A stretch of DNA of 20,000 nucleotides, from positions 120,137-140,136 of the forward strand of contig NGBS01000314.1 in the NCBI GenBank assembly GCA_002245135.1. The letters run 5' to 3'. How positions within the stretch are numbered: the first letter of the stretch is position 1; every line of letters starts with the position of its first letter. The notes beneath the pieces were generated by a model. The model worked only from the letters and a program-made list of their open reading frames with translations, made no database searches and had not been told where the DNA came from. Below, one piece after another: positions 409-20,000 of the stretch. This DNA comes from Proteromonas lacertae (Eukaryota). Both the position numbers and the translations under genes were made by a program.

Positions 409-2132
409 ATGAAATATTATATTGATATACAAATATTAAGAGGTTTTTCAATATTATTTATAATTTTATTTCATTTTAATATTATTAAAAGCGGTTATAA
501 AGGAGTAGATGTTTTTATATTAATATCAGGATTTTTAGTATACAATCAATACGAGAAAAACAAATCAATTCTACTATTTTTAGTATATAGGATACAAAGA
601 ATAATGATACTATCATATTTTGTTCAGTTTTCCATACTAAAATTCTATTCAGTATATGATAAATATAATATATCAAATGTAATTGATGAATATAATAATG
701 CTTTGCTATTTGTTTCAAATATTTATTATTATTACATAGGTAATGATTATTTTTTGTCTAATACTAAGAAAGTGTTGTTACATTATTGGTATATATCAAT
801 GGATCTTCACTTATATTTTATTTATCCATTAATTCATAAAGCAAAAATGATTTTCATATTCATATTTTATTTAATATTCTTGATAATTCATATAAAAGAT
901 AATAGTTTTTCATATTATTTTGCAATAGCTAGGTTGTATGAATATTTGATAGGAAATACATCATTTATATATAGAAGAATAAATAATAAGTACATAAAAT
1001 ATGTTTCTATTATTTTAATTCTCTATTCACTTTCCTTTACATTAAGTAATTACTATATAAGTAATATAATAATTCTATTATTTACTTATTTATATTTAGT
1101 AAATGAATCACAAAGTATAAGTATATATATTATTGAAAAAATTGGAAATGTATCATATATCTTGTATCTTATTCATTATCCATTATCAATTAAAAATAAT
1201 TCAATCATGTTGCTAATTTTATTAATGCCCATATATGTTATTCTTAAATATATAGAAAGCTCTATTACTATACATTTAAAAGAATTCAATATAGTATATT
1301 CATTAGCATTTGTTCTATTCTATTATTTTATCTGTAGAATTGTGTCATATAAAATATCTAAGAGTAAAACAGAATTTAAAGATAATATACCTAAACAAAC
1401 ATTTATAAATAATTGTTGTGATAATTTTGAATATAGCAGAAATGATATATTAATTATTGGTGATTCTCATTCATATAGATTCCTTGTAAATGTGTTACTT
1501 ATAATATGTGGAAATGAAATTAAGATATACTATAAATTTGTCCATTCAAACTGGATTATACATAATTCTATAAAATATATTAATGATATTTATAACAAAT
1601 TTTATTGATAATTTCCATGAATATGATATCTTGTAGATTGAATTATAAACTACCTATTTTAATTGATGAATATACCAAATATGTTTTATTCTTAAAATCA
1701 AAATGTAAATATTTAATAGTATATAAACCTACACCAACTTTCAATAAGTCAATAGATTGTTTAACACAAATCAAAAATAGAATAGCTATAATAAACTATA
1801 ATATCACTTATATACCTTTTAATCTGAATATCACATATAATAAATATTTCATTCTCAAAGATCTATCAAAATATTATTGTAACAATAGAATATGCAACCT
1901 TACATATAATAGTAGATGTATTTACGATGATTACAATCATTTAAATTCATTATTTTATCGTAGTATATTTAATATTGTAAAGATTGATATACTAAAATAC
2001 ATTCCACATGTTAAACAAAAAGACATGAAATGCAAAAGTTTTATTGTATATAATAATATAATCCCTTACAATTGGGTTTTTTTAAGGAGCTTCTGTATTA
2101 AATCATATTATAGTAAATCTGATTTACAATAG
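409..2132 (+). CDS. Acyltransferase-3 + SGNH O-acetyltransferase (OafA/OatA-like), split by one frameshift near 1600-1604
   Basis: Motifs IQILRG...FH, GVDVFILISGF, RIQRI, LLHYWY, IGNVSYILYLIHYP and GDSH are in ORF 409-1608. The SGNH DxxH motif (DYNHL) is in overlapping ORF 1605-2132. Adding one T to the T4 run at 1600-1603 fuses them (KFLLIISM, compare KFDLVIIG in the paralog). Intronless. Confidence 0.85.
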
Positions 2133-2530: not shown

Positions 2531-4339
2531 ATGTTTTTTAATGTTATAGAATCTGTCAAAGGTTTTTCATGTTTATTAATTGTCTTGTATCATATATCAC
2601 CAAAATTAATACCTAACGGATTTTTAGGAGTAGATCAATTTTTTATATTATCTGGATTTCTTATTGTTAACTCTATTCAAAATAGTAAATACAAATCCTT
2701 TAAATTTAATGACTTTATTAATAAAAGAATACAGAGAATTATACCATTAAAATGTGTTGTATTATATTATGTTTTATATGTGAATAGACATTATCTAAAA
2801 GAGACAATATTTGATTTGGAGTATGATTCTATTACATCATTGTTATTCTATTTCAACTATAAGTTAATTAATGATAATAATGATTATTTTTCTAAAACTA
2901 CTACTAATTTAATTCTTAATTTTTGGTCTTTATCAGTAGAAGAACAATATTATATATTAATAGCAATAATATCAATAATTGCTTCAAAATTGAATAATAT
3001 AACATCTATAATTATTCATATAACCATAATATGTTTATCTTATATATCTTTTTATCACTACTATACAGAATATTATGTTATATCATTCTACAGCGTTATA
3101 TCTAGAATGTGGGAATTTAGTTGCGGTTCATGCGCTTACTATTATAATAATTATTATTCAAATCGATATCTTATGTATTTATTTGTTATTATTCAAGTCA
3201 TGTTAATGTTTTCAAGCAAAATTGGTGTTATTTGTCATGTATATATAAATGCTATAACAGTGTATCAAATCAATTACTCAAAATATAATAATGATATATT
3301 TTTCTCCAACTATATCATCAGATTTATAGGTAGATTATCCTATTCTATTTATCTATTTCATTATTCGAATGTAATGCTGTTTAACTACAAAAAGGGAATA
3401 ATTGTGACAATATTAGGATCAATTATTTTATATTATATAATTGAACAGCCATTTAGAAAATATATATCAGGTTTAGTTATTATTGTATTTTATATAGTAT
3501 ATATTTTTATCTTTTACAGAATGTATGTTAAAGATTATAAATATACTGCAGTAAGGAAAACTGATTATTATTTTATAAAAGATATGTGCTCATATGATAT
3601 AGTAGACTATATAATTAAATCAAGAATTAATATATTGTTATTAGGTGATTCACACGTTTTACACTTCATTAGAGCATTTTATAATAATAAATGTGATGTT
3701 GTATTATATTATTCATATATATATGATGCTGACATGTATAAAAGCAAATATCGCACAATAAACTATTTATTAAAATATAAATTTGATTTAGTAATAATAG
3801 GATTTTTTGAACAATTATATAGAAATGAATCATATAAATATAAAATATATTTATTAATAGAATACATCAAGAATATTACTAAGAATGTATTAGTTATATC
3901 AGATAATCCATTAATAAAAGTTGACCCCAATAATTGTCTCTTATCAAAGAAATGTAGTTATGGTATTATTAATATAAATTGTAGTATTATTCCACCTCAT
4001 AATCTATCCAATTATAAATTCTCAATTAACCTAAATGTTTATGATTATAATACAAATAAATACACCGTACAAGGAAATAAATGTGTATTCTTTGCAAAAG
4101 GAATTCCTATATATAGGGATCAACATCATTTTAGTGGTTTTTTTGTAGAAACCATTTTAGCAAATGAAATACATAATTTGTTAAACCTAATATTAGAAAG
4201 AACTATATACAAAGATGTATCTGTTTCTCATATAAAGTTTCATTGTTTGGAAAATGATCATAATATATATAAAAAAATTTGTTATAGAAATAATTATAAA
4301 ATACAGAATATACATATAACAAATATAAAACATAAATGA
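2531..4339 (+). CDS. Acyltransferase-3 + SGNH O-acetyltransferase (OafA/OatA-like), 602 aa
   Basis: Motifs K-x10-H, GFLGVDQFFILSGFLI, KRIQRIIP, FWSLSVEEQYY, SRMWEF, GRLSYSIYLFHY, IEQPFR, LLGDSH and YRDQHH. Multiple hydrophobic helices. Intronless. Confidence 0.93.
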   Translation: MFFNVIESVKGFSCLLIVLYHISPKLIPNGFLGVDQFFILSGFLIVNSIQNSKYKSFKFNDFINKRIQRIIPLKCVVLYYVLYVNRHYLKETIFDLEYDSITSLLFYFNYKLINDNNDYFSKTTTNLILNFWSLSVEEQYYILIAIISIIASKLNNITSIIIHITIICLSYISFYHYYTEYYVISFYSVISRMWEFSCGSCAYYYNNYYSNRYLMYLFVIIQVMLMFSSKIGVICHVYINAITVYQINYSKYNNDIFFSNYIIRFIGRLSYSIYLFHYSNVMLFNYKKGIIVTILGSIILYYIIEQPFRKYISGLVIIVFYIVYIFIFYRMYVKDYKYTAVRKTDYYFIKDMCSYDIVDYIIKSRINILLLGDSHVLHFIRAFYNNKCDVVLYYSYIYDADMYKSKYRTINYLLKYKFDLVIIGFFEQLYRNESYKYKIYLLIEYIKNITKNVLVISDNPLIKVDPNNCLLSKKCSYGIININCSIIPPHNLSNYKFSINLNVYDYNTNKYTVQGNKCVFFAKGIPIYRDQHHFSGFFVETILANEIHNLLNLILERTIYKDVSVSHIKFHCLENDHNIYKKICYRNNYKIQNIHITNIKHK

Positions 4340-7935: not shown

Positions 7936-9780
7936 TCATACTAATGATGAGTTTGATGAATAGTTATTATTTTTTATCATATGATAAATGAGTTTTCTAT
8001 ATAAAATATCATAATGAATATAACAGTAAGATATTTTAGATATTTTATTTATGGTAATATTTTTTGATAATATAACAAGTTTATATACTTTATTCTTCAT
8101 TAATTTAACATAACATTCAGTAAGATGATGATTATCAGAATAAATTTCAAATCCATTTTTATACATATTACATATTTTGTTTGAGCATATTTCTTTAGTT
8201 AAATTAATATAAAAAATATTGCTTAAATTGATTTTTGGTTGTAAGTCTGTTGTACAATTAACATCAATAATGCAAAATATATTATTTCCGTTTATATTAG
8301 AAGAATAGATAATTTTGGGATTGTACTTTAATGAAGGATTATCAACAAAAATGAATATTTTATTAGCTATGCCAGACAAATAATAATTTAAACTATTCAA
8401 ATTTTTTAAATATAAAGGACTTCTGTATTGTATGTTAGAATAAAAACCTTCAAAGACATAGAAAGGATTTCCAATCATATTAATTACACGTTTCACTACT
8501 AAATAATAATTATTAATGAAATAATGAATCCAAAATACCAAAAAGAGGACAAATAATCCAGTAGATTTATATAAAGGTAGCAAAACCACATTCCATTGTC
8601 GTAAATGTGAATCACCTACTAAAAGAATATACTTCCCATCCATTTTAATATTTTTAATTAAGTTATTATAAAAAATACATTGTGTACATATTTCATTATC
8701 ATTAGGAAATACATTTTTACATTTTACTATATTTGATTCATTTCTATTAAATAAAAAAACAGCCTTAATAACCAAATATGTAATATATATTTCAACTACT
8801 ATGCTATAAATATATACTACAATATAAGTACTATTGAGATTAGTAAAATAATTCTCAACAAATAAGTAGCAGAATATACTAACAATTAAAACTAGAATTA
8901 TAGATACATTTGGATAATATGTTAGCAGAGGATAATGAACTATATAAAATGAATAGGATAAAGAACCAAAATATTGTATTGCTTTTATTGAGAACAGTGA
9001 ACTACTTTTAAACTCTTGGAATAGCATCAAAAATGAAGTAATCAAAGGTAATAACATTTTGTGGTTAGGATATTGACCAATAGAACATTCATAACTACTA
9101 TAAATCCACATAATAATAACAAAAGCATCATATAAATACTGACATTTAATTATGTTACCATAATGAACTATATTTAGATAAGACCCAAAAATTAGTTCAC
9201 AAAATCTAACTTCGAATGAATAGTATGAGTAATTAACATCCTTGCTACAAATATATAATGAAAATGAAAATGAAATACAAAATATAATAAAAAGAGAATA
9301 CTTTATATATTCATTGAATATCAATTGAATAATAAATGGCCATATTAAATAAAACTGATTTTCAACAGATAAGGACCAATAATGTAATAATGGTGTATAA
9401 CTAAGCGAACTAGATTGCTCTAAATAATTTACTGATATGTAATAATAATAATAGTTTGCATATGAATATAAACATGACAATATTTCTTTGGATCTTTTAT
9501 ATGATATGAATGGATTTGATAAGGATGATATATATATAATTAACAATATTAAATTTGACATGGGTTGTAATCGAAGTATTCTTCCTTTAAAGAAGGATAT
9601 GTAATAATTTTCTTTTTTCATTCTTCTTATTAAACTTCCTGTTATGAAATATCCTGATAATGTGAAAAAAATATCAACTCCTATAAAACCTCCTTTGAAA
9701 TACTTATTCTTTTTATGAAAATAAAAAACAAATATCATCGCAAAAAATCTGACTGCCTGCAAATCATTCCTGTATCTCAT
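7936..9780 (-). CDS. Acyltransferase-3 + SGNH O-acetyltransferase (OafA/OatA-like), 614 aa
   Basis: Motifs YRNDLQAVR...FH, GGFIGVDIFFTLSGYFIT, RILRLQP, PLLHYWSLSVENQFYLIWP, GSLSYSFYIVHYP, LVGDSH and YSDNHHLT. Most canonical of the three copies. Intronless. Confidence 0.95.
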   Translation of the reverse strand: MRYRNDLQAVRFFAMIFVFYFHKKNKYFKGGFIGVDIFFTLSGYFITGSLIRRMKKENYYISFFKGRILRLQPMSNLILLIIYISSLSNPFISYKRSKEILSCLYSYANYYYYYISVNYLEQSSSLSYTPLLHYWSLSVENQFYLIWPFIIQLIFNEYIKYSLFIIFCISFSFSLYICSKDVNYSYYSFEVRFCELIFGSYLNIVHYGNIIKCQYLYDAFVIIMWIYSSYECSIGQYPNHKMLLPLITSFLMLFQEFKSSSLFSIKAIQYFGSLSYSFYIVHYPLLTYYPNVSIILVLIVSIFCYLFVENYFTNLNSTYIVVYIYSIVVEIYITYLVIKAVFLFNRNESNIVKCKNVFPNDNEICTQCIFYNNLIKNIKMDGKYILLVGDSHLRQWNVVLLPLYKSTGLFVLFLVFWIHYFINNYYLVVKRVINMIGNPFYVFEGFYSNIQYRSPLYLKNLNSLNYYLSGIANKIFIFVDNPSLKYNPKIIYSSNINGNNIFCIIDVNCTTDLQPKINLSNIFYINLTKEICSNKICNMYKNGFEIYSDNHHLTECYVKLMKNKVYKLVILSKNITINKISKISYCYIHYDILYRKLIYHMIKNNNYSSNSSLV

Positions 9781-12477: not shown

Positions 12478-12841
12478 TACTATCATGTTCAATCTATACA
12501 TCACATACTCAAAGGATATATTGCAAGCTTTATTTATGGAATAGTATTTCTCTTCCATAATTGTAAGCTTATATGGTAAGAAATATGAATAATATTCTTT
12601 AGTATTATTTCTAATATTTCTAGTGTATTTGTGCATTATCAAATTATGTATATCAAATTATGAATACTTTTTCCCCTTTCTTTAATATAAAAACATATTA
12701 AATCTACAATATAAAGATATAACTACTTTTATATTATTTATAGACTCAGATATAATTAGTGATATACAATTCTCAATTATAATACTTGATTTAATAATTT
12801 AATCATTAATATTATAATAAGAATTACTTATTATAACCAAA

Positions 12842-13556: not shown

Positions 13557-14226
13557 CTAGTCCTTATTTTTTAATTGATTTATAATTGGATTACCTGATG
13601 GGCCTTGAAAAACTGTTCCATTTGATAAAGGTAAATCTAATTTTGGAATAATTCTTCGCTTTTTTAGAATTGGAGTATTTCTATCAACTGAGTCTTTACA
13701 TTTGTCAATGTCTGAATTATCTACTAAACAATTTTGAGTTTTTCTTACTATTTCTCTCTCTTCTTCTAAATTCTTTCTTTTAGATTGATACGAGTGTTTT
13801 TCTCCTGGAATCCATTTTGCATTTGGTTCTAATTCATATGCTTTTTTTATCCATGCCTTATATTCTCTTTCCAACTATTAATCATAAAGAATTCCTAATA
13901 ATACAAATTCAGCTCTTTCTTTGAATTCTTTTATTTTATGTGATGAATAATTTCGATTCACTTCTAATTGTTCTACATTGTACTGTAATTCTTTTTTGAT
14001 TTTCGGTAACCACTTCCTTATATCTCTAGATGTTTTTACAGTATCTCTATATTGTTAAATTATAATGTATTTCTATACAAAGGTGGTCTTTCATAACTTC
14101 TTATTTGATCTTTATCTTTTGCTATTACAAATCTGTAGAATAATTAAGAAAATATTCAAATTAACATAATATATGGGGAAATGATATATTTATCTCACTC
14201 TTCTGTTTTTCAGAATTTCTTGCCAT
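13557..14226 (-). CDS. ISY1-like splicing-factor family protein (~184 aa, 4 exons; short divergent homolog)
   Basis: Exons 14226-14188, 14134-14079, 14046-13905 and 13874-13557 give MARNSEKQKSEINRF...ERPPL...RKWLPKIKKEL...LEREYKAWIKKAYEL. This aligns with the ISY1 N-terminus (MARNAEKAMTALARF...RRP...EKWRRQI...LREKGHWEVRIKEL). Confidence 0.8.
14135..14187 (-). other. U12-type (minor spliceosome) AT-AC intron, 53 nt
   Basis: Donor ATATCATTT, branch-point-like TTTTCTTAAT (14152-14143), acceptor TTCTAC. Phase 0 splicing restores an ungapped match to ISY1 residues 1-15. Both available GT donors joined to the adjacent AG hit TAA within two codons. Confidence 0.82.
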
Positions 14227-14289
14227 TCTGGTGTATGAAAATATTTTCGTTGCATTTCATTCCCCTCATTTTAGATTTTCTTTTGTTTT
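14227..14289. promoter_or_regulatory. 63-bp divergent intergenic region (bidirectional promoter and 5' UTRs)
   Basis: Head-to-head ATGs at 14226 (minus) and 14290 (plus). Confidence 0.6.
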
Positions 14290-14995
14290 ATGTCAATTCA
14301 ATCTGAAGGACTTTATTTTATTGCAGTTCCAGAGGAAGATAAACCTAATGGAGGATATGATGATATTGAAAAATGCATTAGTTCGTCAGTTAACTCATTT
14401 TGTGGTATTTTATGTTTTATTAGGTTTTAGATATTCACCGATTTGAAATTCCGAAATTACCAGTTGGTACCCTTGAAATATTGATGGTATTTTTTATATT
14501 AGTATATTTTGTATGTAGGTTCTTTCAGAAGAACTTATCAAAGTGGATACTCAAGGAAGAGGCGTATTAGATAAAATTAGAAAGGCTTATTATGAATTAG
14601 TCCAAGAAGGTAGTAGAAATTCATTGTTAGTTGCAAATGGAACAATATTAGATTATTTAAAGAGTTTTGTGTGGAATGAGACAAGTTTTTCAAAGACAGA
14701 CAAACTCCAAGAATTGTCTAAAAAGATATCTGATGTATATATTGTTCCATTTATTAATTGAGAATAGAAATTTGTTAATGAAGAAACAGAAATTCGTAAA
14801 ATGAATAACAGATATACAGAAATAAAGAATCAACTTGTAGCATTGAAGCGTAAGAGCGGTACAACGTTATTATCTGCTCCAATATCCTCAATATTAACAA
14901 ACGATGTAATATTGCAAGGAACAGGAGGTATGACTCCATCTGAATTATTCATAAATACTGATTTTATGAAAACTATAGTTATTGTTATATCAAAG

Positions 14996-15027
<32 letters not shown>

Positions 15028-15635
15028 GAACTCAAGAAAAGGAATTCTTAGCATCTTATGAGAAGTTATATTCCATCACCAATAATACAAATGGAACAGT
15101 AATGTATGGAACAATACCAAAATCAGCAAGAAGAATTATTGAAGATAAAGATAGTTATGTTTTATATACTATAGTTATCTTGAAGAAATTTGAAAATGAA
15201 ATTAATGAGATATGTAAAGAACATCATTATCATATTCGTGAGTATGATCTTGCTGAAGAAACAGATAAACCAGAAATAAAAGATGAAGAGAAAATAGCAA
15301 AATTAGAAAATGAAGAGAAGAATATGAAATCGAGTATTACTAGATGGTGTAGACCTCATTTCAGTGATATTTATCAAGCTTGGGTGCATCTAAAAGTGAT
15401 TCGTGTTTATATTGAAGCTATCTTGAGATATGGTTTACCTCCTAAATTCATTTCAGCAATTATTAAAGTAAGACCAAAGATGGAAAAGAGGTTAGAAAAA
15501 TCTTTAATTACAAAGTATGAACATTTAGGAGGTAAAATAAAGGCATATGAAAAAGATAGTAACAGCAGTATTATTGGTGGATCAGATACTACTAATTATC
15601 CATTTGTTTGTATTAATATTGAACGATTAGCTTAA
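14290..15635 (+). CDS. ATP6V1C: V-type proton ATPase subunit C (~406 aa, 5 exons)
   Basis: Exons 14290-14404, 14431-14486, 14519-14734, 14768-14994 and 15029-15635, with GT-AG introns of 26, 32, 33 and 34 nt. Motifs FEIPKLPVGTLE, FVWN, RKSGTTL, AWVHLKVIRVYIEAILRYGLPPKF and YPFV. Confidence 0.95.
14996..15022. repeat. (TA)n microsatellite forming most of V-ATPase C intron 4
   Basis: Direct reading. The intron spans 14995-15028. Confidence 0.9.
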
Positions 15636-15763: not shown

Positions 15764-17311
15764 CTATGATTTATTTCCTTGTTCTCTTAATTTTTGTATT
15801 TTCTCTCGAATTGCAATCATTCTTGGGTCATCTGTTTTAGTTGGAGGGACAATTCCGCTAGAACCGTTGGCTTTATTGCTATTAATTCTTTGAACTTGAG
15901 TATTCAATACTCTTTCATGTAAAGATTCTAATCTTGCTGAAAATGCTGATTTTGGCTCAGACTATTAAATGTATATAAATATGATAAAATACTGGTAGGT
16001 TATATTGAGATTTCAATTGTTTCAATCTTTCTTTCACATCCATAGCAGTGTTTGATTGCAAATAATTATTTGTCAAATTCATTGTTCTTTCTTTAGAAGC
16101 AATTGTATCTAATTCTCTTATAATGTAAGTACTATAAACAGACCCTAACTGTTGAAGGTAAATATCAATATTAATCTGAGGATGTTGTTGTTTAAACTCA
16201 TATAACATAGGAATAGTTGGACAAGAATTAATCTCTTTTCTTGTTAATTTTGCTATTTCTTGTGTTATATTCTGAAGCATTTGCTGTAATCTAGCAATAT
16301 TATCATCTTCATCATCATCTTCATCTTCATTATTGTTATTATTATTATTATTCTGTAATAAACTCATAATCTTTGAATATAATACATCTTGTAATGAAAA
16401 CTTATTAATTTGTGTTTGTAATAAATCATATTGTGATTCTACATAATCTCTAATCAAATCATCCAAAGTTAAATCCATTGAATTCTGATATCTTTTGTAT
16501 AAAAGAGATGAATATATTTTATTTAATGATGGTATAAATATCTCACAATTGATTCTACTGTATGGTTCACTTTGTTTTGCTTCAGCATGTCTTATTTTAT
16601 CCAACATCTTTAATATTACTTGTAACTTCTGTTCAACGTATTTTTCTCTAATACTTGTCAAGTATAATGTTTGACAAATTGCTGCTAATAACAGTGTTGT
16701 ATTTGCTGATTGTAATACACGAATTAATACATGTTGAAATGCTTGTGCTAAATCCTTTAATTGATCATTCTCCTGTAGTGTATCTCCTAATAACCCCTTT
16801 AATGATAATTGTAATAGATTTTCAAGAGATTTTTCACTTATCAATTGTGCAATTCTGGGTTGTTGGAATATTGCCAATAAATCCTGATAATGTAACAGAT
16901 AACATTCGTGAATCTACTTCACTTCCTTTAATATTATCGCCTAATGATAATCTTGCACATTCTATCAATCTGTTACTAATTTATCCCACTTCATGTTTAT
17001 TAACTCATCAATTGAATCACCTTCTAACACTAATTTTACTATAATCTTGCATGAATCAACAGCATCATTGTGATCTCCACGATATAAATCGATAATTTGA
17101 TATGGAAGAACTCCTGTTTCATATCTTATTATTATATTCTCTAATTTTAATATTATTCTATCTATTATTGGCATTTCTTCATCTGATTCAGTTCTTCCTC
17201 TTGTTCTTCTGTGGTAGTGTTCTCTTGAATATAGTGGCGAATCTACATAACTATCACCTAAACTCATTCTCTTAAAGTTAAATACTTACATAACATTAAA
17301 GAACTAAATAG

Positions 17312-17351
<40 letters not shown>

Positions 17352-20000
17352 AAATGATATATTTGAATCACTGCTTAATGCAGTTACATTTGCATCTGAA
17401 TTAACATAATTCTCTCCATCCTCAACTTCTCCTTCTTGATATTGATATTGATCTTCACCATAATTATAATTGTAATTTCCATATACATCTTCATCTGTAT
17501 ATTGTTCTACTTCTTGTTGTTGTTGTTGCATCTCCTCTTCATAATTATCTTCTTCTTCTTCTGATGCTGCTATTACTACAGGTCTTTGTCTTGGTGGTGT
17601 ATATCTTGGTATTCCACTATTTCGCTGTTGTGCTATTAATGGATGTGGTGGAGGTGTTTTCTTAGCTCCAACATATGGTGATGTATGGATTTTCTATTAA
17701 ATAATAATTAATATTAATAATATTATGATTATACAGTATCAGGTATTTCAATATTGGAATGTTTAATTCTTTCTGCTATAAGATCTTGTATTTTTTTTGG
17801 TAAATCAGGTACTAAAGCGTATATTCTTTCCACTACATATTCAAACTCAATATATAATTGAATAGTTATTTCTAATGCTGAATTTCTAATATCTTTATCA
17901 TCACTACCAACCAATTTAATAATATTCTGTAATCCCTTCTTTGGTACAGCAACACTTCCTCTATCTCTCACTAATATATTTATTTCTACTAAACACTCAG
18001 TTACTACCCTTTTATTCTTATTATCTAATTGGTCTATTAAATATGGAACTATTTTTTCTGAATCATATAAACTCCATATTAAATTCATCAAATCATGACC
18101 ACTCTTAACGAATCTAATTTTATTTGAACCAAAGAATTTCTCTAGTATTGTTGGTAAAATGATAGAAACTTCTTTATCAAGGAAATGATAACTATTATAA
18201 TATAAAATATATATAATATATACTCTTTATTATCTAACATGGTAAATAAATTAGTGTAAAAATCAACAATTGTTGCTGTTTGAGTGGTTAAATCTCTTCC
18301 TAATAATTTCAATGTTACATATTTCAATAATAAATCCAATATTGACACTACTTCATCTGGATTAGTTTGAACTGCTTTGATTAATAGTTTTAATGCTTGT
18401 AATACATCTACATCTTTCTTAGAAAACATTAAATCAAATAATTCAGTTGGTAAATATGGTTGGATCAATCTCTTCACATCTCCCATATATTGTTCTTCTC
18501 TTACTGTAGTATTCCATATTGTACGATCTTTATTAATTCTATCATATTTCACTGCATCAGAACATAATATAAAGTATTCATTTGAACCACCATTCTCTAT
18601 ATCCACAAACATATTTGGACGAACTTTAGCTTGTTTATTAGCTGGACCTAATGTCTTTGTAACTGGAGGAGGAATACCTGATGATTGTTTTGTAGATGGC
18701 ATTTCTGTTTTTGCATAAACATTCTTCTTCTTCATTTGCAGTGGAGAACTACCTTTGATTATATCATTCTGAAACATTATTGTTATTGTTGTCATTTATA
18801 TTAGCAGATTCAAATATACTATCTAATCTAGGTTGTACCTGTCTTAATACAGCTGGTTTATAATCTCTAGTAGCATTAATAATTGGATTTCTACCTAAAT
18901 GTTGAACTACAATAATTAAACAACTTTCAGCAACATCTTTACAGCCTTTAAATTATCTTGTATTGATTCAACTAATGGTTCAACTAAACAATCAAATGTA
19001 TTAGTTGTTTATTATTTAGATACTTAATCAACCATGATAAATTTATTCTTATTCCCTTTTATAACATCAGCTACATATGGAATAACACTTTTATTGATGA
19101 TATATCACCATCATGATCTACCCATTTATCTAATGTATCATATAATACAGAGGTTATATTCTTTCTACTATTTGTTGATATACCTAACATATATGGCAAT
19201 ACTGATTTATTGAATTGTGTAATATCTGGACCAACACAAGCTGCTAAATATCCTAATACTTCGACAGCTTTAGATTGAAGATTCTGATTTGGTTCGAATT
19301 TAATTCTGTCTCTTAATGCTAATACTACTTCTTTCACTGGTGTTAATTCAATTTGAAATGTTGATTGCAATAATACACTCAAATCTGACATTGCTTGATT
19401 TCTATTCTTCCAAGCTTCTTTGTTTGAATTATCAGTTAATTTGACTAATAAAGGGCTGTAATTGTTTAGATATATCAACTGCTCTCATAATATCATTATT
19501 ATTACCATTATTATCTTCTTCACCCTCTATTTCTATTGGTGGAACATAATCTACTTTATATTCTGCTTTAGAAAGTGCTGTTTCTATTGTATTAGTTAAT
19601 TGATTGGAGAGATTATAACATGTTAACATTGGTGATAATTGTGGTCCAAGTTGTTCATATAATGATGTTAATACTTTTAATGATTCATTCTTTGCTGATG
19701 AATTAGGAGATTGTAAACACTATTATTATATATATATATATATATACAGTATTAGCAGTAACATAATCCAATATACACTTTATATCCAATTTATTTATAC
19801 CAAATCACTAATTGCTTTTGATAAATATGATAATATAGTAACATGTACTGCCATTGATTTAGTGGGAATAATTAATGGAATTATTAAATCATAGTCCATT
19901 TTGGTGATATCTTTATTGATGATTGGTTGTATATTTCTATTAGAAATGGAGATAATCTTCTTTCACTTATCTTCTCAACTGTATTCTTAATCATGTAATT
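15764..20000 (-). CDS. CKAP5: XMAP215/ch-TOG/CKAP5-family microtubule polymerase, 3' portion (5' end beyond window; several apparent small indels)
   Basis: TOG/HEAT motifs AWKNRNQA, ILDLLLKYVTLKL, RVVTECLVEI, DIRNSAL and LYEQLGP. GT-AG introns at 19720-19747, 18192-18223, 17694-17734 and 15962-15992. The last exon ends with TAG at 15766-15764. Confidence 0.88.
17277..17360 (-). other. Candidate second U12-type AT-AC intron containing a (TA)n tract (17316-17348)
   Basis: Same donor context AAT|ATATCATTT as in the ISY1-like gene, branch-like TTCTTTAAT (17303-17295), and in-frame acceptor TTTAAC|TTT AAG AGA ATG. In-frame GT-AG alternatives exist. Confidence 0.55.

Follow-up and report, generated by a model that had tools for sequence, protein, structure and literature searches.

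A 53-nt AT-AC intron, probably U12-type, in an ISY1-N-terminal-like gene of a probably Blastocystis-like genome

Introduction

By which intron, and by which spliceosome, is the first exon of an ISY1-like gene joined to its second? The question is raised by a minus-strand gene in the window, by which we mean the whole 20,000-nt stretch of DNA analysed here. The frame after exon 1, MARNSEKQKSEIN, meets a stop, and a different frame carries on as RFVIAKDKDQIRSYERPP... A sequence-only reading of the window had placed between the two a very short AT...AC intron of the minor (U12-dependent) spliceosome with a shifted donor. U12-type introns have the 5' splice site RTATCCTTT and a branch site TCCTTAAY located roughly 10–20 nt from the 3' end.

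Host gene and protein family

The host gene has four exons on the minus strand (13557–14226) and a 184-aa product. We searched 1.84 billion representatives by phmmer, using as query exons 3 and 4 read through intron 3 (with X at its two stops). The 57 matches include the close ORF fragments P0003 (88% identity), P0008 (73%) and P0002 (71%). Exon 1 (14188..14226, MARNSEKQKSEIN) begins with the ATG at 14226, and its N-terminus aligns from residue 1 with P0006. Exon 2 (14079..14134), placed with a family profile, encodes RFVIAKDKDQIRSYERPP and supplies two bases of an L codon. It is followed by an ordinary GT-AG intron, intron 2 (14047..14078, 32 nt, GTATAG...ATATAG), which agrees with the profile and with the local intron set. 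Exon 3 (13905..14046, DTVKTSRDIRKW...KERAEF) is covered by P0003 and P0008, and the P0003 ORF fragment would imply that a relative also has an intron at the position of intron 2. Intron 3 (13875..13904, GTATTA...AATAG) was placed by reading frames and the profile; its length of 30 nt is a multiple of three, and it contains in-frame stops. Exon 4 with its TAG stop (13557..13874, stop at 13559..13557) is an ORF to which P0002 is the close match.

The full-length phmmer matches mostly begin MARN.EK. Named family members come from Blastocystis, Basidiobolus, Cavostelium, Planoprotostelium, Arcella, Trichoplax, a jellyfish, many molluscs, frogs, and sharks and rays. All of them are labelled hypothetical or uncharacterised; the vertebrate member bears the zebrafish name 'si:dkey-86e18.1', for which a full-text literature search returned no paper. 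Rows of the ESM Atlas agree on the family, as a lead only. The family profile gives the window protein 143.9 bits, and the family invariants are L12 (also I in one count), N13, R14, P31 and L33. The closest protein to the ISY1-like product, among the full-length matches for which the organism was looked up (30 of the 57 matches), is from Blastocystis sp. Blastoise.

The sequence-only reading had called the gene ISY1-like, and this holds for the N-terminal domain. Thirteen of 20 scanned homologues match Pfam Isy1 (PF06246) with 29–41 bits (cutoff 25), and a profile of 23 family members matches human ISY1 chains over positions 1–96 (E 7.3e-6). The MARN.EK start and the N-terminal roughly 96 residues are thus shared with ISY1. 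However, the likeness does not extend over the length of the family: the Isy1 matches of the homologues span at most model positions 1–100 of 253, that is, the N-terminal third alone. Single exon pieces and the exon 3–4 read-through gave no ISY1 match in Pfam or PDB, and the exon pieces alone, too short or too diverged, had no Pfam or PDB match of any kind; a word-index search with exon 4 for longer proteins found none. Judged by sequence similarity, the host gene is best classed not as canonical ISY1 but as a member of an uncharacterised ISY1-N-terminal-like family.

Splice junction

The candidate intron (14187..14135, minus strand, 53 nt, phase 0) begins with the 5' splice site ATATCATTT (14179..14187) and terminates in TTCTAC, after which the next exon opens with RFVIAK. 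Its 3' splice site AC (14136..14135) is directly followed by AG (14134..14133). Taking this AG as the acceptor would shift the frame into a stop. A GTGAGA with its first base at 14198 lies 11 nt before the AT donor; joined to the AG at 14133 it would produce a 66-nt GT-AG intron, which is likewise frame-shifting. The coordinates, the letters and the 53-nt AT...AC stretch given in the sequence-only reading agree with the sequence, and so do its branch sequence 8 nt before the 3' end and the AG right after the AC.

We tested the junction by protein homology. All in-frame, stop-free cut pairs (n = 1085, with any end letters) were scored with a profile of 42 family N-termini. Removal of 14187..14135 gave the top protein (143.9 bits, rank 1 of 1085). 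Four neighbouring cut pairs yield this identical protein, with the ends AT-AC, TA-CA, TA-TA and AT-CT, and only AT-AC is a known splice class. AT-AC splicing joins AAT, the codon of N13 at the end of exon 1, to AGA, the codon of R14 at the start of exon 2. Both residues are invariant in the family N-termini (42/42), and position 12 is L or I. The spliced 184-aa frame is open. From residue 1 on, its product aligns over 113 aa with the hypothetical Blastocystis sp. Blastoise protein P0006, at 50% identity and with a single gap (E 2e-38). The phmmer matches supply a further measure. In most full-length matches residue 2–4 of the query pairs with residue 35–38 of the match, hence the N-terminus absent from the query should be about 33 residues long, and the AT-AC model supplies 32. 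As judged from these comparisons, the junction 14188|14134 is very likely real; the AT-AC junction proposed earlier emerges as the best of all 1085 cut pairs and restores N13-R14.

U12-like signals in the intron

The donor ATATCATTT matches the general U12 consensus (ATATCCTTT) at 8 of 9 positions, with the mismatch (A) at the conserved position +6. A branch-site-like TTTTCTTAAT (14143..14152) ends 8 nt before the 3' end of the intron; at the same distance ends TTCTTAAT, a 7/8 match to the consensus TCCTTAAY. The comparison set comprises 10 GT-AG introns from the three neighbouring genes, all confidently located; ORF continuity served for this, supplemented in the V-ATPase C gene by a tblastn search with P0001. 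All 10 begin with GTAT and end with AG (mostly TAG). They are 26–41 nt long, shorter than the 53-nt candidate, and contain 3.1% C, with C at +5 in 0/10; their best match to TCCTTAAY reaches only 5–6 of 8 positions. Neither the length range nor GTAT is a strict rule: the window has at least one probable GT-AG intron of 63 nt with GTAAC at its start. Directly shown are the AT-AC junction, through protein colinearity, and the presence of U12-like donor and branch signals that the neighbouring introns lack; the earlier description of these signals stands.

How often would the signals arise by chance? Bare 9-mers like ATATCATTT or ATATCCTTT are expected about twice per window; a ATATCCTTT at 12519 on the minus strand is intergenic and was discarded as a chance occurrence. 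We considered the donor and the branch site jointly, within introns. When 200,000 introns were simulated at the base composition of the local ones, C at +5 plus at least 4/5 of CCTTT was found in 0.4%, a 7/8 match to TCCTTAAY ending 6–16 nt from the 3' end in 0.6%, and both together with a frequency of 1.5e-5. This joint frequency speaks for a U12-type intron and against a local GT-AG one with merely changed end bases. The minor snRNAs U11, U12, U4atac and U6atac have no match within the 20-kb window, where an Rfam search gave no family above the gathering score and, at E up to 1, only a chance-level miRNA model.

Taken together, we assign a probability of about 0.7 to the reading that this is a 53-nt phase-0 AT-AC intron in an ISY1-N-terminal-like gene, probably spliced by the minor (U12-dependent) spliceosome, in a genome probably belonging to a low-GC (tortoise-type) Blastocystis-like lineage. 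The identity of the acting spliceosome is the part that we infer: U12-type splicing is probable from the intron signals and by analogy with known U12-type introns. By analogy with Blastocystis ST1 and with general U12 biology, the organism would also have kept the minor snRNAs. In the mechanism that we propose, ATATCATTT would base-pair first with U11 and afterwards with U6atac, each time mismatched at +6, and U12 would pair with TTCTTAAT, where the T replacing the usual C would form a G-U wobble. The putative branch A would lie about 9–10 nt from the 3' end, so that AC would be chosen by distance rather than the AG two bases on. Joining of AAT and AGA would then give the invariant N13-R14.

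Alternative explanations

The intron might instead be a canonical GT-AG one, with AT-AC an artefact of forced colinearity. Two such models are in frame and without stops: GTTAAT...TAATAG (14165..14122, 44 nt) and GTGAGA...TAATAG (14198..14122, 77 nt), the latter with a donor known to be good in many eukaryotes. The claim that only AT...AC splicing yields a colinear product needs one qualification, the four top ties, among which AT-AC is the sole known splice class. The products of the GT-AG models score 132.3 bits (rank 148) and 118.5 bits (rank 753), and so trail the AT-AC product by 11.6 and 25.4 bits. Both destroy N13-R14, invariant in 42/42 family members, and neither donor begins with GTAT, unlike 10/10 local donors. 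We regard a canonical intron at this place as very unlikely. Still less credible is an assembly error hiding a true GT...AG intron, or a decaying gene copy. It would need two independent base errors exactly at both ends of the intron, while the other exons are intact and conserved (71–88% identity to P0002 and P0003) and the full 184-aa reading frame is open.

Of more weight, though still unlikely, is the explanation that the AT-AC intron is real and that the major (U2-type) spliceosome removes it, as a local GTAT...TAG intron in which the first G became A and the last G became C. Work in yeast reportedly found that these two changes suppress each other, and ATAT...TAC indeed differs from the local GTAT...TAG introns only at the two terminal bases. 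The departure of the donor from the U12 consensus at +6 and the lack of any minor snRNA within the 20-kb window also speak for this explanation. What it leaves to coincidence is the interior: C at +5, TTT at +7 to +9 and a 7/8 branch match at the right distance, a combination with a simulated frequency of 1.5e-5 and with signals present in 0/10 local GT-AG introns. U2-type AT-AC introns share the terminal dinucleotides with the candidate, and its ATAT mirrors the local GTAT donor; however, they keep the major consensus, whereas here we find C at +5 and the U12-like branch match. Furthermore, the published Blastocystis AT-AC introns are of the U12 class, and the Introns section of PMC5608401 describes no U2-type AT-AC class. 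We therefore retain U12-type splicing by the minor spliceosome as the probable reading.

Comparison with known minor introns

Minor introns are well documented in Blastocystis. Gentekaki et al. (2017, PMC5608401) reported for Blastocystis ST1 346 U12-type introns, typically AT-AC, together with all four minor snRNAs and seven specific proteins; according to supplementary file 12 of that paper the minor snRNAs are known for ST1 and ST7. The survey by Larue and Roy (2023, PMC10639083) counted 253 ST1 minor introns; 77% have AT-AC ends and 49% lie in phase 0. They are also the shortest in that survey (mean length about 42 bp, median 39 bp). Their turnover is fast, 11 of 12 aligned ST1 minor introns being absent in B. 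hominis (PMC10639083), for which 0.29% minor and 2.6% 'minor-like' introns are given (PMC11347168). The sequence-only reading had presented both the very short length and the AT-AC ends as unusual, but both are typical of Blastocystis ST1 minor introns (PMC10639083).

The candidate resembles the U12-type introns of Blastocystis ST1 and B. hominis in its AT-AC ends, very short length and phase 0, and in a host with roughly 30-nt GT-AG introns. As in ST1, the minor-type intron is longer than its GT-AG neighbours. It differs in the A at +6, where the general U12 consensus has C, and in lying in a genome of about 22–28% GC, similar in this to the tortoise isolates. With the U12-type AT-AC introns of animals and plants it shares the ATATC... 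donor, a TCCTTAAY-like branch site near the 3' end and a YAC 3' end with no need for AG; unlike them it is far shorter, has the +6 mismatch and carries one C-to-T change in the branch site. The intron is thus a new example of an already known kind, the short AT-AC introns of Blastocystis. The A at +6 is a small departure, and the single intron is otherwise an expected feature of a Blastocystis-type lineage.

The rest of the window points to the same lineage. The only word-index match of the V-ATPase C exon is from Blastocystis hominis (41% identity), the GC content is 19–28% outside one island, and the introns are about 30 nt long. For tortoise-derived Blastocystis, 21–23% GC, canonical stops and 40–42% amino-acid identity to human subtypes have been described (PMC10690189). 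In protein similarity, GC, intron length and stops, the window probably fits this low-GC, tortoise-type Blastocystis picture. The downstream element TGTTTGTT of human Blastocystis subtypes was uninformative in the window (2 matches versus 1.45 expected). Our result hints at the retention of minor-type introns in the low-GC reptile-type Blastocystis clade. They go unmentioned in the text of PMC10690189, where the term 'U12' has no occurrence.

Related loci were sought by means of exon 4. None was found among metagenome contigs in a first scan, or among prokaryote genome contigs. A second metagenome scan, with alignment, revealed a single locus, L001, which belongs to another organism with a higher GC content. 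This one other genomic copy that we read has no intron at N13|R14, which speaks against an ancient origin of the intron at this site. The first intron of L001 (131–178, 48 nt) is GT-AG, and a perfect ATATCCTTT lies 11 nt after its GT donor. A TTCTTAC lies 12 nt before its AG, and use of ATATCCTTT with that AG would be out of frame. In parallel, the GTGAGA in the window likewise lies 11 nt before ATATCATTT.

Donor position +6 and a second candidate

With A at +6, base pairing to U11 and to U6atac would be lost at this position, and the change is not of the wobble kind. The sequence-only reading had gone on from the donor to a lineage with a shifted minor 5' splice site and compensating changes in U11 and/or U6atac. 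A lineage-wide +6 donor shift with such compensation cannot be inferred from one intron and an ambiguous second candidate. We searched the window for further sites of the form [AG]TATC[ACT]TT that close an open frame and are followed, in frame, by an AC or AG. Of these, a single additional one falls at a real exon end, at 17360 on the minus strand, in a large multi-exon gene. There a second AAT|ATATCATTT occurs, the same 12-mer AATATATCATTT closing a 114-codon ORF. An 84-nt AT-AC intron (17360..17277, minus strand) would link this ORF in phase 0 to a 106-codon ORF, and TTCTTTAAT lies 18 nt before its AC. In-frame GT-AG alternatives are available too: GTAACT...TTTAAG (117 nt) and GTGATT...TGTAAG (87 nt). 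Homology cannot choose between these models because the region is a low-complexity linker. An unrestricted AT..AC scan of the window was too unspecific.

In both AT-AC candidates of the 20 kb (14187 and 17360), AATATATCATTT is found where an exon ends in phase 0. The shared donor is a suggestive coincidence, not evidence. One may speculate that in a low-GC Blastocystis-type lineage the minor 5' splice site has been re-tuned to ATATCATTT, U11 and U6atac having changed to match, and that the host gene could encode a factor linked to the minor spliceosome and be gated by the U12 intron that it carries. This extended proposal seems to us improbable. As regards the host gene, all named members of its family belong to what are presumably lineages keeping minor introns, a pattern of presences only. 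Should the A at +6 prove to be the norm across the genome, splice site and snRNAs would offer a natural example of co-evolution.

Gene annotation and other features of the window

The analysis provides a correct gene model for a conserved, unnamed ISY1-like protein. It had been predicted that GT-AG-only gene predictors would mis-model the host gene, and this is plausible because in-frame GT-AG alternatives exist. As to the genetic code, ORFs of 399–614 aa are open under table 11, in keeping with the standard code. A ciliate code was also tried and rejected: long ORFs are already open in the standard code, and the ciliate code only adds noise.

The ISY1-like gene (minus strand) and the V-ATPase subunit C gene (plus strand; Pfam E 4.8e-49) are arranged head-to-head, with 63 nt between their start codons (14227–14289). 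This spacer falls far below the median length of intergenic regions given for tortoise isolates in PMC10690189. Three intronless acyltransferase-3 genes are located at 409–1608 (+), 2531–4339 (+) and 7936–9780 (–), two of them with a fused SGNH domain (Pfam); given this bacterial-type architecture they may have been acquired from bacteria. Between 4900 and 7500 (–), an island of 33–42% GC stands out from surroundings of 19–28% GC. It contains one long frame interrupted by a few in-frame stops (likely short introns with lengths divisible by three), for which Pfam gave no convincing family. Lastly, (AT)n microsatellites are found inside short introns or candidates for such introns at 14995–15028 (+), 17300–17345 (–) and 19720–19747 (–).
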